Shown one piece after another: positions 10,368-21,104 of a stretch of DNA of 64,000 nt; the first letter of the stretch is position 1; every line of letters starts with the position of its first letter. The position numbers and the translations under genes are program-made. Source of the stretch: an archaeon (GTDB lineage: Archaea; Micrarchaeota; Micrarchaeia; Norongarragalinales; UBA97); NCBI GenBank assembly GCA_020057405.1, contig JAGVFW010000011.1, positions 36,344 to 100,343 on the forward strand, in the 5' to 3' direction. A model generated the notes under the pieces. The model ran no database searches, was not told the origin of the DNA, and saw only the letters and a program-made list of their open reading frames with translations.

Positions 10368-10715
10368 AAGGCAGTATTTGGCGGTTGCGGGCTTTAAACA
10401 CTAGAGCCAACACACCCAAGGGGTATGGCCCCCGCTTCAAAAGCCCCCCCTTCGGCCGCCTGAGAGCGGCTTGCAGGCCCGAATATATCGAAAAACGGTC
10501 CGGCCGGCCAAACCAGAGCCAATTATACTGCTTCGGTATTGATTTTGAGGTCTCTAGTGTGGCCGCTAGGGGTAAAGAAAAACCGGCTCGCGGGTGCCTT
10601 AGGGGGGCGGCAAGCCGGCAAGCCACCGTTGGCCAAGGAACGACCGCTCGGGGGCAGTAGCAACTATGCAAAGTGAATTGAATGGTCTTCGGATTGGCTC
10701 GAATGAAAAAAAAGA

Positions 10716-10909
10716 GTGCCCGAGAGGACACGCGAGCCACCTGCCAAATTAGGTTAGGAACTGGTGAGTTGAATGAATTTCGTTAGTGCGTCAAAAAAAG
10801 AAAAAGTGCTCGAAAGGACGAGAGAGTCACCCACCAAATACAATTGGGGAGAACTCGAATATATTTCTTGTGCCGGTGTGCTCGAGAGGGTAAGAGGGTC
10901 ACCCACCAA
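10716..10909. repeat. Three degenerate copies of a 32-nt motif (10716-10747, 10806-10837, 10878-10909)
   Basis: GTGCCCGAGAGGACACGCGAGCCACCTGCCAA / GTGCTCGAAAGGACGAGAGAGTCACCCACCAA / GTGCTCGAGAGGGTAAGAGGGTCACCCACCAA. The third copy is positions 7-38 of the tRNA-like RNA. Confidence 0.85.
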
Positions 10910-10957
10910 GTGACTGCGCGCAGGCGCAGTGTGGGGTTCAAATCCCCACCGCCGGCA
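10872..10957 (+). ncRNA. Non-canonical tRNA-like RNA (long variable arm, 7/6 acceptor-T stems, ACC anticodon, C33)
   Basis: GCCGGTG/CGCCGGC-A acceptor; TG; D arm CTC-GAGAGGGTAA-GAG; GTCAC-CCACCAA-GTGAC; variable arm TGCGC-GCAG-GCGCA; T arm GTGGGG-TTCAAAT-CCCCAC. Confidence 0.8.
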
Positions 10958-10989
10958 AACGACCCTCAAGTAAACCAGAGGTGGTTGAC

Positions 10990-11109
10990 ATGAAAGTTGA
11001 CGTAAGCAAGTTGAGTTTTGGAAGCCTGAACAAGGCCTTCACCGAGATGGATGAAGGCAACCTGGCGTTCTCCCGCAAGGGCGAGCGCGTGTTCGTCGAA
11101 GTGTGCTAG
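10990..11109 (+). CDS. 39-aa micro-protein MKVDVSKLSFGSLNKAFTEMDEGNLAFSRKGERVFVEVC
   Basis: ATG after a strong GAGGTGGTTGAC RBS; host-like codons; below the ORF-track cutoff. Confidence 0.65.
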   Translation: MKVDVSKLSFGSLNKAFTEMDEGNLAFSRKGERVFVEVC

Positions 11110-11121
11110 GAAAAAAGAGGA

Positions 11122-11340
11122 ATGAGAACAATGGACACGATGGACTACGCTGAGGCTGACGCGAATGCGCAGCGGCGGCCCCAGTTTTTCATCAAGCAGA
11201 ACGGCGAAGTCATCGGGGCGGCCTGGCTTAAGGAAAGCCAGTCTGGGAAGTACCTTAGCGTGGCGGTCAACAAGGACATCCACGCGGGGTCAAAAGTGTT
11301 TCTTTCCCCAAGGAAGGGATTCGAGGGGGTTTTCGGGTAA
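11122..11340 (+). CDS. Small DUF736-like protein
   Basis: EVIGAAWLKESQSGKYLSV resembles the DUF736 signature EIGAAW....GxxYLSV as recalled. Confidence 0.6.
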   Translation: MRTMDTMDYAEADANAQRRPQFFIKQNGEVIGAAWLKESQSGKYLSVAVNKDIHAGSKVFLSPRKGFEGVFG

Positions 11341-11426
11341 TAGAGGCATTAGGGGCAGTAGGCGCAACAAGCCAATCAGGCACCGCGCCGCCCCCATTCC
11401 TCCACCCATCCGAAAGCTTTTAAGTC

Positions 11427-11444
11427 AATTATAACAAATTATAA
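11427..11444 (+). promoter_or_regulatory. Putative operator of the first VapBC operon
   Basis: AATTATAA repeated twice with 10-bp periodicity, just downstream of the BRE/TATA-like CGAAAGCTTTTAA. Confidence 0.45.
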
Positions 11445-11453
11445 TAGATAGAG

Positions 11454-11663
11454 ATGGTGCAAGTGTTCAAAGCGAAAGTCAGGCCCATTGGCTCCTCTGC
11501 AGGAATCATCATTCCGCAGGAGGTTCTGCTTGCGGAGAAACTAGCTCCGGGCGAGGAAGCGGAGTTCGCAGTAATCCACCGAAATTTTGCCCTACTCGAC
11601 AATCTCATGGGCACAATGAAAGGCGCAAAGCCGTTTGTGCGCGATCGGCGCGACAGAATTTAG
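11454..11663 (+). CDS. vapB: AbrB/MazE-type antitoxin (VapB)
   Basis: KVRPIGSSAGIIIP swapped-hairpin motif; lies upstream of a PIN gene. Confidence 0.85.
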   Translation: MVQVFKAKVRPIGSSAGIIIPQEVLLAEKLAPGEEAEFAVIHRNFALLDNLMGTMKGAKPFVRDRRDRI

Positions 11664-11671
11664 GTGGTTTC

Positions 11672-12046
11672 GTGCTCCTAGACACCTGGGCCTGGATAGA
11701 ACTCTTTCAACGAACTCCCAAAGGCCTCGCTGTGCGAAGTAGGATGAAAAAAGACGAAGTGCTTACCTCTGCACTTAGCCTTGCCGAAATAGCCCACTGG
11801 TGCAATCGGAACGGAAAGGAAGCCAGCCCATACCTACAAGCAATGAGGCAATCATCAATAATCTTGTCTGTCAGCGATGAGCTAGCAGAGAAAGCCGGCT
11901 TAAACCTCGCGGGCTTTAGGCAAACGTCGCCAGGAATTGGCATGGTCGACGCAATAATACACGCTACTGCCGAATCAGTCAGCAATCTTTTACTCACCGG
12001 CGACCCGCATTTTCGTAACCTGCCCGGCGTCGAATTCATCGAATGA
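11672..12046 (+). CDS. vapC: PIN-domain toxin VapC
   Basis: LLDTWAWIE, LAEI, GMVDAII, LLTGDPHF. Confidence 0.92.
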   Translation: MLLDTWAWIELFQRTPKGLAVRSRMKKDEVLTSALSLAEIAHWCNRNGKEASPYLQAMRQSSIILSVSDELAEKAGLNLAGFRQTSPGIGMVDAIIHATAESVSNLLLTGDPHFRNLPGVEFIE

Positions 12047-17824: not shown

Positions 17825-17900
17825 GGCAAGCCACTTCCGATAATTCCTTATGGTTAAAAGCAGCACTTGATTTAAACAGTTTCCGTAAGGTGTGGTTTCA

Positions 17901-20900
17901 ATGGAAGTAGCGCAACAGAGGCTTATTAGCAGCGAGCTGGTGCTGCGGTTCGACAAGTTTTTCTCGCAGGAGAGCCAAAAGCGGCGGCTTGAAATCGTTG
18001 CCTCAAAGTACCCGCAGGTAAAGAGCGCCGATGTCGACCTTGACGACGTCTACAAGTTTGACCACGACTTGGCGGACGAAATCCTTGAGCAGCCTGACGT
18101 TTACCGCGAGGCCGCGGAAGAGGCGGTGCGCAGGATGGGCGTGGCGTCAGTGCAGGAAAACGAGTTTTCGCCCCACGTGCGCTTCTTCAACACGCCTGAC
18201 GTGCCAAAATTCCGGCCCATGGTGCTTGAGCTCGGCGCAGACCACCTAAACCGCCTTATTTCGATTGATGGCACGGTCAGCTCAATTGGCGACATCAAGC
18301 CGCACTTGAAGCGGGCGGTGTGGCGCTGCAAGTTCTGCGAAGCCACTACCGAAACTTTTCCCGACAAGACTGAACCGGTCCAGCCGCCGTTCTTTTGCGA
18401 GAGCTGCACGCGCAAGGACGGGAAGGCCAACTTCGAGCTTGACGAGAAGGCAAGCTGGCTTGTCAACAAGCAGCGGTCTGAAATCCAGGACGCAGTCGAG
18501 CGCCTGCGCGGCAACGTCCCGGCAGTGCACGTCGAACTGTGGCTTGAGGACGACCTCACCAACAGGATTGCGCCAGGCGATAAAGTCATCCTTAGCGGCA
18601 TCCTGAGGCTAAAGCCCCTGACGCAAGGCCGCGGGAAGAGCAGCGTTTACGGCAAGTTTTTCGAAGTCATGCACGTTCACGAGCGTGAACTTGAATTCGA
18701 GGAAATCGAGATTACAAGAGAGGATGAGGTCGAAATCCTCAAGCTTGGCCGGGACCCCAAGCTGTTTGAGAAAATCGTCGCGAGCATCGCACCCAGCCTC
18801 TACGGTTACACTGAACTAAAGCAGTCGATTGCGCTGCAGCTATTCGGAGGCACGCCCGGAAAAGTGCTTCCTGACGGGGAGCGCATCCGAAGTGATATGC
18901 ATATTTTAATGATCGGTGATCCGGGTTGTCTCGTGGCCGATGAGCGGGTTGCACTAGGAAACGGCGCAATCGCTAAGATGGGAGAGCTTGGAACCAAACA
19001 CTTGCAGGAAATAAACGTGTCCGTGCTTACTGGCGAGGGGGGAAGGAAACGGGATGTCGCAACCGTCTTCCACAAGTACCCTAACCAGCCGGTCATGGAA
19101 GTAATTACAGAAAGCGGCAAAAGCATCAGGGGAACTCACAACCACCCGCTATTGTGCGTAGAAGGCGATTACGGAAGGATACAAAGAAATTGGAAGCGCC
19201 TTGATGAACTCAAAGTCGGGGACAAACTGGCGGCAGTAACGTCAATCCCCTGTACGATTACCGCACCGGTCGCTACCGGATTCAAGCCTCTAGCCTACAA
19301 GGGGGGACCCAAGTTCAGCGGAAAGCTGCCGGCCCGCTTCACGCCCGACCTGGCCGCACTGTCGGGCTATTTCCTTGGCGACGGCTGGGCAACTGAAACT
19401 GAAGTCGGATTCGTAGTGGCCGAACCGGAGAAAGACATCATACCCGAGCTTGAGCGCAAGTGCGTAAAGCTTTTTGGCATTAGTCCCAAGAAAGTGTCGC
19501 ACAAGCTCGCTAAAGGCAGAACGGTTCCACTCCACTACTTCGGGCTATACTCGAAAGATATTGCGAATAACTTAAAGTTCCTTCGGGAAAAGCGCGTGCC
19601 GGCACTGGTCCTCGCGTCGGGAAATAGGGTATTGGCGGAATTCCTAAAATGGCTCTTTGAAGCTGACGGCACGGTCTTCGACAAGGGCAGGGGCAGGCGG
19701 GTCGTCGGGCTAAAGGCCAAGAATATCGAACTATTGCGGGACGTTCAGATGCTCCTACTTAGGTTTGCAATCCACTCGCGAATCGACGGCAACGCGCTTT
19801 TGATACGCCGGGGGAATGACATCATTAAGTTTACAAAGAAAATCGGCTTCGCATCGCAAAAGAAGAGGAAAAAACTCGAAAGCCTCGCCGCCAAAGCCAA
19901 AGGATTCGCGAGGACAAAGGGGCAGCGGGTTGAAAAAATCGTCAAAATCATCCGACACCCCCCCGAAGACGTCTTCGACGTCGAAGTGCCAAAGGGCCAC
20001 CGCTTCATCGCAAACGGCATTATCTCCCACAATACGGGCAAGTCAACTATGCTTGAGTACGTTTCCAACATTGCGCCCAAGAGCGTTGTTGTTAGCGGTG
20101 GCAGCTCGACTGGCGTCGGCCTCACGGCTGCTGCTGAAAAAGAGGAGGGCGGCGAGGGTTGGGTGCTTAAGGCGGGCGCCATGGTGCTCGCGAATGGCGG
20201 AATTGTCGCAATTGACGAGCTTGACAAGATGAATGAAAACGACAGGGGCGCAATGCACCAGGCGATGGAGCAGCAGTACATCAGCATTGCAAAGGCAGGC
20301 ATTGTCACTGAATTCCAGACCAAGACTGCAGTCTTGGCGGCTGCAAACCCAAAGCTCGGCAGGTTTGACCCCAACACGCCCCCCGCGCAGCAATTCAACA
20401 TTTCTCCGGCCCTGCTCTCGCGTTTCGACCTGATTTTCACCATGCGCGACGTGCTTGACGAAAGCCGGGACAAGGCAATGGCGAGCCACATTCTCGAGGG
20501 CCACAGGATTGCGGCCTCGAAGGAAGCCCCGCCGAAGTCAAGCATCACCGTCCCGCTAATTGAGCAGACTATTTTGCGAAAGTACATCGCTTACGCAAGG
20601 CGCCACTCAGCTCCAAAGCTCACGAAGGAAGCCTCGGAGAAAATCAGGGACTACTACGTGCAAATGCGCCGCATTGGACAGGAGCAGAATACTTTCCCGA
20701 TCACTGCGCGGCAAATTGAGGGCCTCATCCGCCTCTCGGAAGCTAGCGCGAAAATGCGTTTGTCGGCAACAGTTGACTTGCAGGACGCCCAGCGCGCGGT
20801 TGACTTGCAGAACTACGTGCTTAACGAAGTCTTCATCGACAGGGAGACCGGCAAGCTCGACAGCGACGTCGTCAATCTCGGACAGTCGAAGAACCGGCTT

Positions 20901-21104
20901 GACCGCGTGCGGACCGTGCTTAACATCATCCGCGACATCGAACGCGAGTACGACCTCGCTCCCATCGACGATGTCGTGAAGGAAGCGCGCAACTACAACA
21001 TCGACGAGTTCTACGCAAGGAACCTCATCGACGAGCTACTCCGCAAGGGCGAGCTCTACGGCCCCAAGGCGGGGTATGTGAAGAGCGCACGGCAAAGGGA
21101 ATAG
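17901..21104 (+). CDS. mcm: Replicative helicase MCM, intein-containing
   Basis: Zn finger CKFC/CESC, GDPG|TGKS, IDELDKM, AAANP, LLSRFDLIF, ITARQIEG. Confidence 0.96.
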   Translation: MEVAQQRLISSELVLRFDKFFSQESQKRRLEIVASKYPQVKSADVDLDDVYKFDHDLADEILEQPDVYREAAEEAVRRMGVASVQENEFSPHVRFFNTPDVPKFRPMVLELGADHLNRLISIDGTVSSIGDIKPHLKRAVWRCKFCEATTETFPDKTEPVQPPFFCESCTRKDGKANFELDEKASWLVNKQRSEIQDAVERLRGNVPAVHVELWLEDDLTNRIAPGDKVILSGILRLKPLTQGRGKSSVYGKFFEVMHVHERELEFEEIEITREDEVEILKLGRDPKLFEKIVASIAPSLYGYTELKQSIALQLFGGTPGKVLPDGERIRSDMHILMIGDPGCLVADERVALGNGAIAKMGELGTKHLQEINVSVLTGEGGRKRDVATVFHKYPNQPVMEVITESGKSIRGTHNHPLLCVEGDYGRIQRNWKRLDELKVGDKLAAVTSIPCTITAPVATGFKPLAYKGGPKFSGKLPARFTPDLAALSGYFLGDGWATETEVGFVVAEPEKDIIPELERKCVKLFGISPKKVSHKLAKGRTVPLHYFGLYSKDIANNLKFLREKRVPALVLASGNRVLAEFLKWLFEADGTVFDKGRGRRVVGLKAKNIELLRDVQMLLLRFAIHSRIDGNALLIRRGNDIIKFTKKIGFASQKKRKKLESLAAKAKGFARTKGQRVEKIVKIIRHPPEDVFDVEVPKGHRFIANGIISHNTGKSTMLEYVSNIAPKSVVVSGGSSTGVGLTAAAEKEEGGEGWVLKAGAMVLANGGIVAIDELDKMNENDRGAMHQAMEQQYISIAKAGIVTEFQTKTAVLAAANPKLGRFDPNTPPAQQFNISPALLSRFDLIFTMRDVLDESRDKAMASHILEGHRIAASKEAPPKSSITVPLIEQTILRKYIAYARRHSAPKLTKEASEKIRDYYVQMRRIGQEQNTFPITARQIEGLIRLSEASAKMRLSATVDLQDAQRAVDLQNYVLNEVFIDRETGKLDSDVVNLGQSKNRLDRVRTVLNIIRDIEREYDLAPIDDVVKEARNYNIDEFYARNLIDELLRKGELYGPKAGYVKSARQRE
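18927..20033 (+). mobile_element. Intein (369 aa) with LAGLIDADG homing endonuclease in MCM Walker A
   Basis: Begins CLVAD, block B THNHP, LAGLIDADG boxes LSGYFLGDG and FLKWLFEADG, ends FIANGIISHN followed by Thr+1. Confidence 0.95.

Follow-up and report, generated by a model that had tools for sequence, protein, structure and literature searches.

What use does an archaeon have for an RNA with the body of a class II transfer RNA (tRNA) and an anticodon that fits this body badly? The question is raised by a locus of the phylum Micrarchaeota, located in a window of 64,000 nucleotides (nt) at G000:C10:36344-100343 (contig JAGVFW010000011.1), in an assembly of 1.22 Mb that comprises 17 contigs and is 90.6% complete. 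The window is the whole stretch of DNA that was analysed, and positions below are counted from its first letter unless a contig is named. A tRNA-like RNA, here called X, is encoded on the plus strand at 10872-10957, and two partial copies of it, modules A and B, lie upstream. An initial annotation of this DNA had described X as something other than a normal decoder, and had offered four functions for it: an allo-tRNA-like RNA, a missense tRNA, a non-ribosomal aminoacyl donor, or a processing or regulatory mimic. The evidence leans towards the last of these, and it neither favours nor refutes the missense and aminoacyl-donor functions. The most telling feature, which that annotation overlooked, is the presence of tandem upstream copies that co-vary with X. 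The RNA locus is real and unusual, and the mechanism that we propose for it is inferred from the sequences of four to five incomplete genomes.

Fold, conservation and decoding capacity of X

We compared X of the genome under study (G000) with its homologues in a genome of the same genus (G001) and in two genomes of another family (G061 and G028). X forms a class II cloverleaf. Its acceptor stem has 7 bp (GCCGGTG/CGCCGGC, with a single U6-G pair), the D stem 3 bp (CTC/GAG, with G13-A22 adjoining) and the anticodon stem 5 bp (GTCAC/GTGAC); the last of these closes the loop CCACCAA, in which C32 and C33 are followed by A34-C35-C36 at 10905-10907. The variable arm, TGCGC-GCAG-GCGCA, has a 5-bp stem and a 4-nt loop. 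The T arm, GTGGGG-TTCAAAT-CCCCAC, has a stem of 6 bp and joins the acceptor strand without a gap, and the discriminator base is A. U8, A14, the D-loop GG and TTCAAAT are all kept, so that the five stems, the acceptor G-U and the conserved nucleotides listed in the initial annotation are present as it described them. ARAGORN called a tRNA-Gly(acc) at 10871-10956; the call is one base off and pairs the acceptor and T strands differently.

The folding energy of X was -44.7 kcal/mol (z = -4.12), and none of 200 shuffled sequences folded equally well. We next aligned the four X homologues and scored 26 pairs by five measures against 500 shuffles. In this alignment 98% of the cells pair, and 11 of the 26 pairs change on both sides; these compensatory changes are found in all five stems and across the two families. 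None of the 500 shuffles matched the alignment in any of the five measures, and when the partners were slid by 1-3 columns, pairing dropped to 38-55%. The nucleotides of the tertiary contacts (U8, A14, G18G19, T54-T55-C56 and A58) are invariant in all four sequences. A73 is likewise present in 4/4, and the 7-nt loop with a purine at position 37 and the 5-bp variable stem are kept. As four Micrarchaeota genomes carry X and 11/26 pairs change on both sides, X is under selection for its fold and is not in decay. The selection claimed earlier is thus borne out, and what the relatives have is this unusual RNA with compensating substitutions, not a normal tRNA in decay. The arrangement of the arms fared less well as a general trait. 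The 7/6 acceptor/T arrangement is confined to G000 and G001, whereas G061 and G028 have the ordinary 7/5. X of G001 also has an acceptor mismatch, A4-C69, and ARAGORN gave no tRNA call there.

A covariance model built from X of G000 and its G001 homologue gave matches in 9 of the 68 genomes of the order; four of them are X (113.8 bits in G000, 109.2 in G001, 78.3 in G061 and 70.0 in G028), and the remainder, at 51 bits or less, were read as ordinary tRNAs. A broader covariance model, R2, run on 151 genomes of the phylum, picked ordinary Leu and Ser tRNAs; only G000 and G028 exceeded 72 bits, and an unpublished genome included in this set, G094, gave a match of the ordinary level and bears on no conclusion drawn here. 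The 28 best other R2 loci that we inspected were all ordinary tRNAs. Unfiltered R2 searches of 17 loci with the small open reading frame (ORF) that follows X revealed no remnant of X apart from that of G001, and BLAST of the locus in 61 relatives had its sole match in G001 as well. In a metagenome scan with a D-arm-to-T-arm pattern fitted to the four X genes (at least 119 stretches), the 120 matches listed were all ordinary class II tRNAs lacking a B module, with no homologue among the matches listed.

Does X read codons? The Rfam tRNA model RF00005 does not reach its gathering score of 29 bits on X, and the best match in the tRNA clan is tRNA-Sec (RF01852), with 28.2 bits against a cut-off of 47. 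A whole-genome RF00005 search (E<=0.01) found 38 tRNAs; X was absent from them, and the genuine Leu and Ser tRNAs scored 49-57 bits. The loop varies among the orthologues: CCACCAA in G000 is replaced by CCGTCGA, CCGTCGA and CTGTCGA in the other three genomes, and the 'anticodon' accordingly reads ACC in G000 and GUC in the three relatives. Elsewhere, G000 has tRNA-Gly(GCC, UCC, CCC), tRNA-Leu(UAA, UAG, CAG, GAG) and an intron-bearing tRNA-Asp(GUC). Because X scores below the Rfam cut-offs, its loop varies and cognate tRNAs exist elsewhere, these sequence data support the view that X is not a standard decoder and would read no codon in the standard way, as had been suggested before.

Of the earlier arguments for this view, one counts for less than was assumed and another does not hold. 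C33 had been taken as a sign of oddity. Position 33 of X is C in three genomes and U in G028, and among the 27 intron-less tRNAs of G000 that were checked, 25 have T33, one (Pro-TGG) was unreadable due to a misplaced stem, and tRNA-Ser(GCU) at G000:C10:10386-10470 has the loop CCGCTAA with C32-C33. C33 alone is therefore weak evidence. The 13-bp helix had been likened to tRNA-Sec, with which X shares a 13-bp acceptor/T helix, a long variable arm and its best Rfam match. However, X has no UCA anticodon and a 7/6 rather than a 9/4 or 8/5 arrangement, its D stem has 3 bp instead of 6-7, and its relatives are 7/5. In a tRNA-Ser(CGA) of another genome (L163) we also noted the loop CCCGAAA. In this lineage, C33 may be characteristic of Ser tRNAs.

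The same tRNA-Ser(GCU) is the genuine tRNA closest to X, with the highest R2 score (62.4 bits) of the genuine tRNAs in the genome. Its anticodon arm, GCAGC-CCGCTAA-GCTGT, closely resembles ACAGC-CCGTCGA-GCTGT of X in G061, C32 and C33 included. It differs from X in having G73, a cognate anticodon, 7/5 arms, another D arm and another acceptor stem, and a score of 51 bits with RF00005. Therefore, X probably descends from a class II tRNA of Ser type and gained A73 later. Among the other tRNAs of G000, tRNA-Asp(GUC) has an apparent intron after position 9 and tRNA-Leu(GAG) an insertion in the D loop (G000:C11:66680-66800 and C11:166051-166164, both on the minus strand), which suggests non-canonical intron sites.

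Upstream modules A and B and their leader

Positions 7-36 of X recur twice in tandem upstream, at 10716-10745 (A) and 10806-10835 (B), or up to 10747 and 10837 when the copies are taken to position 38, with spacings of 90 and 72 nt, and each copy is preceded by a run of A. Runs of at least seven A or T number 209 in the 1.22 Mb, and two of them lie at this locus. Module B (10793-10837, minus strand) combines the copy with an A7-G-A5 run at 10793-10805. Repeat family D1, the minus-strand alignment, the predicted fold and a duplex with X of -31.1 kcal/mol point to an RNA of ~43 nt, consisting of a 5' seed, a hairpin and U5CU7. Module A (10706-10748, minus strand) is a more diverged copy of the same family with A8 at 10706-10713, and it predicts an RNA of ~40 nt with the hairpin GUGUCC-UCUC-GGGCAC and U8. 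A terminator scan flagged this module independently, on the minus strand at 10731-10716.

The three-copy layout (A, B, X) is common to G000 and G001, and the other family has B as its single copy. When the pattern of A run plus hairpin was searched over the 68 genomes, only seven modules in five genomes were found, and the reversed control gave two hits. B is present in 5/68 genomes and X in 4/68: G055 has B with its AT box and lacks X, and no genome has X without B. A scan of the GTDB species genomes with the module pattern recovered only the G001 contig and five chance bacterial matches.

The likeness between B and X is confined to one stretch. X positions 23-36 (10894-10907, plus strand), which the alignments and the module table identify as shared with B, run from the 3' half of the D stem through position 26 and the 5' half of the anticodon stem into the loop, up to and including the 'anticodon'. 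By our own count, B and X of the same genome agree here at 15/16, 14/14, 13/15 and 15/16 positions, and the stretch itself differs from genome to genome (GTCAC-CCACC, ATCGC-CCGTC, ACAGC-CCGTC and ACTGC-CTGTC). The 12- to 16-mers that B and X have in common occur nowhere else in each assembly. Positions 7-22, on the other hand, are distinct: B always has a perfect GCCC-GNNN-GGGC hairpin there and X always a D arm. As B and X are alike in one defined stretch only and keep separate identities at 7-22, blanket gene conversion is unlikely. Close relatives have different 'anticodons', and B follows the change, which points to pairing and not to decoding.

The signals around B are ordered on the minus strand. 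In 5/5 B modules we observed a TATA-like octamer, a spacer, the first base shared with X, a seed of ~15 nt, a hairpin and at least seven T, in this order; hairpins followed by at least seven T are found in all seven A and B modules. The octamers of the five genomes are TATTTATA, TTTATTAA, TTATTAAC, TTTTTATATT and ATATATT. Their distance to the first shared base, which is the complement of X position 36-38, is 21-22 nt in 5/5, and the spacer sequences are unrelated. In G000 this AT-rich box reads AATATATTT on the plus strand (10858-10866; minus-strand feature) and lies 22 nt before the predicted start of B. Its distance to X is 5, 8, 17 and 8 nt in the four genomes by our own count. Since this distance varies, and since G055 has the box and B without X, the box is tied to B and not to X. 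The box before A (TTGAATGAATTTC on the plus strand; minus-strand feature, 10769-10781) is weak and only loosely TATA-like. The repeat search and alignment place it within a repeat, D3, found at 10673-10691 and 10764-10782.

The predicted minus-strand RNAs have 39-46 nt, with a seed of 14-18 nt. The seed is wholly unpaired in two of the seven (G061 and G055), and partly tied up by the predicted fold in the others. B and X are complementary over 14-18 bp; the complementarity of the A modules is weak. Cognate B-X duplexes have energies of -31.1, -37.2, -26.1 and -32.1 kcal/mol, compared with -13 to -29 for the non-cognate ones. As for other targets of the seed, one-mismatch matches were as frequent as those of the reversed-pattern control. 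We also considered pairing between the seed region and the ribosome-binding site of the small ORF, which is 9/10 in G000 and absent in the other genomes; in our reading this candidate had to be dropped.

X lies in the leader/promoter region of a conserved locus that consists of this small ORF and smc. A strong Shine-Dalgarno-like AGAGGTGGTT and an ORF of 39 aa (MKVDVSKL..., ATG at 10990) occupy 10977-11109 of the plus strand. ORFs of 39-42 aa that begin MK[VI]DVSK... occur in 50/68 genomes of the order (E<=0.1); they usually precede smc, whose P-loop follows within 1.5 kb in 11 of the 20 loci examined. The order is different in G001, where the small ORF comes before the modules. Most genomes have the small-ORF/smc locus without X or B, and even congeneric species of G061 and of G028 do not all carry them; this patchy occurrence points to repeated loss or to mobility. 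Between X and the small ORF, 4 nt after X, a search for complements in the 60-nt trailer detected GACCCTC (10961-10967, plus strand), the complement of X 23-29 (GAGGGTC), here called the anti box. In 4/4 genomes the longest Watson-Crick complement of X with its own 60-nt trailer starts at X 23 or 24 and has 7-8 nt, complementary to X 23-29/30, and its sequence differs in each. Taken singly, the matches are not significant, being equalled by 97, 252, 14 and 381 of 1000 shuffles.

Proposed antisense pairing and its alternatives

We tentatively favour the reading that A and B are short antisense RNA genes, whose target is the D/anticodon arm of X in the small-ORF/smc leader; it is possible rather than assured. 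The order of the minus-strand signals, the fixed spacing of 21-22 nt, the co-variation of B with X and the duplex energies led us to it. X, derived from a class II (Ser/Leu-type) tRNA, would have been kept for its L-shape and would no longer be a codon reader. It is probably a recognition or processing element and not an adaptor, and would act from its place behind the promoter region, ahead of the small ORF that is conserved upstream of smc. B and the older A would be read from the opposite strand, starting from the TATA-like box and passing through spacer, seed and GC hairpin to at least seven U. The seed of the B RNA is predicted to pair with X ~21-36; this would open the D and anticodon arms and abolish the tRNA shape, and the A RNA would do the same to a lesser degree. 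Loss of the shape may alter the processing by RNase P/tRNase Z, or the stability, of X and of any transcript that carries it. The anti box may compete in cis for the same site of X.

Several points weigh against this reading. The comparison rests on four to five incomplete metagenome-assembled genomes, equivalent to two pairs of relatives. The seed of module A fits X poorly (-20.9 kcal/mol), and the B RNA of G061 pairs slightly better with X of G001 (-28.6 kcal/mol) than with its own X (-26.1 kcal/mol). The strand assignment is also open to challenge. TATA boxes are nearly symmetric. In G000 and G001, X is preceded (about -38 to -29 and -14 to -6) by AT-rich boxes that resemble those of genuine tRNA genes and may be its own. 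A plus-strand promoter that is conserved (direct repeats plus TTTTAAAC) lies ~22 nt before B in G028, so that B may be the 5' end of a plus-strand transcript running through B, X and the small ORF. A B-like hairpin directly precedes the ribosome-binding site of the small ORF in G048 and G003, which would suit a plus-strand leader hairpin. The asymmetry of G-U versus C-A in the hairpins favours, in our reading, the minus strand for A in G000 and the plus strand for A in G001. A crude test of T runs at ORF ends revealed no orientation bias (28 versus 27) and was uninformative.

The G028 promoter and the hairpins of G048 and G003 also support an alternative that we regard as unlikely, in which A/B, X and the small ORF (with smc) form one plus-strand transcript. 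The B hairpin and its mimic of the X 5' half would compete with X, either for the anti box or for the strand that forms the 3' side of the anticodon stem, and the leader would switch between a tRNA shape cleavable by RNase P/tRNase Z and another fold. Co-variation of the anti box with X 23-29 in 4/4 genomes is consistent with such a switch, as is the cost of forcing the anti helix, which folds 2.1-4.4 kcal/mol above the optimum in 3/4 genomes (10.5 in G061). However, a leader of this kind offers no pairing partner for the co-varying loop positions 32-36, and it leaves the fixed spacing between AT box and B and the conserved A run unexplained. Moreover, the anti box fits X better than B in 3/4 genomes by our own count, and plus-strand T runs of 4-5 between B and X might stop the transcript. 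That A and B have no function at all is rather improbable in our estimate. In that case a redundant tRNA paralogue would have had its 5' half duplicated in tandem, short-tract gene conversion would keep the leftover copies similar, and X would be a spare tRNA gene that drifts slowly. The tandem spacing of 90 and 72 nt, the patchy occurrence of X and B in the order, the A4-C69 mismatch and missing ARAGORN call in G001, and the extra T-stem pair in the genus of G000 and G001 are in its favour. What drift does not account for is the compensatory change in all five stems in two families, the restriction of identity to 23-36 while 7-22 keep distinct conserved forms, and the constant position of the A run and AT box in five genomes.

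X might still be a working tRNA, charged by SerRS or by virtue of a Leu-like class II body with A73, that reads GGU here and GAY in the relatives or serves as a non-ribosomal donor of the kind proposed for allo-tRNAs; we judge this quite unlikely. The intact tertiary contacts, the 7-nt loop with purine 37, A73 in 4/4 and the 5-bp variable stem speak for it, as do U33 and 7/5 arms in G028 and C33 in tRNA-Ser(GCU). Against decoding stand the change from ACC to GUC between close relatives with B changing in step, the Gly, Asp and Leu cognates present in the genome, and the 13-bp acceptor/T helix of the genus of G000 and G001, which would misplace the anticodon relative to the CCA end. Allo-tRNAs commonly carry GUC and often lie near toxin-antitoxin genes, as described in the text of PMC5389517, and a VapBC pair is located 0.5 kb downstream of X here; however, it is absent from the locus in G061 and G028. 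It is similarly hard to credit that X and the B RNA form an addiction-like pair made of RNA only, X being the harmful 'toxin' (chargeable, mis-decoding or otherwise) and the B RNA its antisense check, born from a copy of the X 5' half. Such a pair would have lodged in the smc leader and would lose X first, with the antisense gene of G055 as an orphan; the order of loss in the five genomes (B without X once, X without B never) fits it weakly. Finally, integrase scars typically show parts of a tRNA gene copied next to it, and mobile-type small genes (DUF736-like and VapBC) lie downstream, so that A and B could be attachment-site scars of elements integrated into a tRNA gene. We consider this very improbable, as the copies are 72-90 nt apart with no element between them, they have an A run in place of the acceptor strand, the layout is common to two families, no integrase domain was found in the 28 neighbouring ORFs scanned, and no copy of the X 3' half was found anywhere in the genome.

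Genomic surroundings, known systems and meaning

The small ORF at 10990-11109 matched no Pfam family, and it may encode a small protein, so far unrecognised, that partners or regulates SMC. In G000, it is separated from smc by a DUF736-like ORF, the VapBC pair and a DHBP synthase gene. The stretch 11122-12046, with ORFs of a DUF736-like (72 aa), an AbrB/DUF2080-like (69 aa) and a PIN-domain (VapC-type) protein, appears to be an insertion seen in this genus only. Two direct repeats lie upstream at 10606-10627 (GGCAAGCC here, GGAAGCAC/GGAAGGCAC-like in L179, L181, L188, L180 and L019), in other genomes just upstream of TTTTAAA before the small ORF. Their appearance suggests that a regulator of the small-ORF/smc promoter binds at this conserved site, which in G000 is set apart from the TATA box.

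A GC-rich region of ~300 nt (10392-10700) separates module A from a divergent phosphoribosyltransferase gene. It contains long-range inverted repeats (10398-10419/10539-10560 and 10467-10480/10604-10617) and the box TTTAAAC (10393-10399), and on the minus strand a site at 10515-10496 resembles a terminator. The region has no Rfam match at E<=10, and may be a structured leader or another RNA gene. The small ORF of G001 has a GC-rich leader (L002, ~2090-2020, minus strand) in which the complementary GCGAAG and CTTCGC enclose GGATTTGAATCC, a sequence resembling a T arm; this may be a relic of another tRNA-like element, and it obtained no R2 score. A replication origin was another candidate, in view of the repeats, the runs of A and the closeness of the MCM and SMC genes. 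It was rejected: one of the copies lies inside an RNA supported by covariation, and no orc1/cdc6 was found among the scanned neighbours. The MCM gene (17892-21104) carries an intein with a LAGLIDADG domain, and in G061, G048 and G036 (L018, L181 and L184) the smc P-loop GPNGSGKC is followed by VRGD..., suggesting an intein at the Walker A site of SMC.

Which known systems does the locus resemble? tRNA-like processing elements include the mascRNA of MALAT1, the t-elements of plant mitochondria and the tRNA-like element before the 5S rRNA of Haloferax. By analogy, X works most like such processing or regulatory modules: a tRNA-shaped module precedes another gene product, and RNase P/tRNase Z would set the ends of the RNA. 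X differs from them in being a full cloverleaf with anticodon and variable arms and in having a co-varying partner, and its cleavage is only predicted.

Base-pairing small RNAs (sRNAs) have a 5' seed and a terminator hairpin, and the 3'ETS-leuZ of E. coli is a sponge derived from a tRNA transcript. The predicted A and B RNAs share with these the seed, the hairpin and the U tail, and a partner from a tRNA-type transcript. Unlike them, their predicted target is the body of a tRNA-like RNA and not an mRNA, their genes apparently arose by copying the 5' half of the target itself, and they belong to an archaeal host, in which termination needs no hairpins. A limited literature search, supplements apart, turned up no description of a tRNA-like RNA that is accompanied by antisense copies of its 5' half.

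Allo-tRNAs are a further comparison. By Mukai et al. 2017 (PMC5389517), they are described as bacterial RNAs with 8/4 or 9/3 acceptor/T arms summing to 12 bp, with GUC among the commonest anticodons and a patchy distribution, many of them of doubtful use in translation. The class II body with an ill-fitting, variable anticodon (ACC or GUC) and the patchy occurrence are common to X. However, X is archaeal and 7/5 or 7/6 (13 bp), failing the geometry that defines allo-tRNAs; A73 is a further difference, and a co-varying partial copy next to the gene is not described for allo-tRNAs in that paper, supplements apart.

RNAs of tRNA shape outside translation are known from few scattered cases, and their control is mostly obscure. 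A conserved archaeal X, whose sequence is tracked across genomes by a built-in partner, offers a direct test case for RNA-RNA interaction on the body of a tRNA. Should X turn out to be charged instead, archaea would have their own counterpart of the bacterial allo-tRNAs, with another arm geometry. If the antisense reading is true, the locus would exemplify a simple route for the birth of a regulator, in which part of the target is duplicated and read backwards, and it would add a regulatory layer before the chromosome-organising smc in genome-reduced DPANN archaea.

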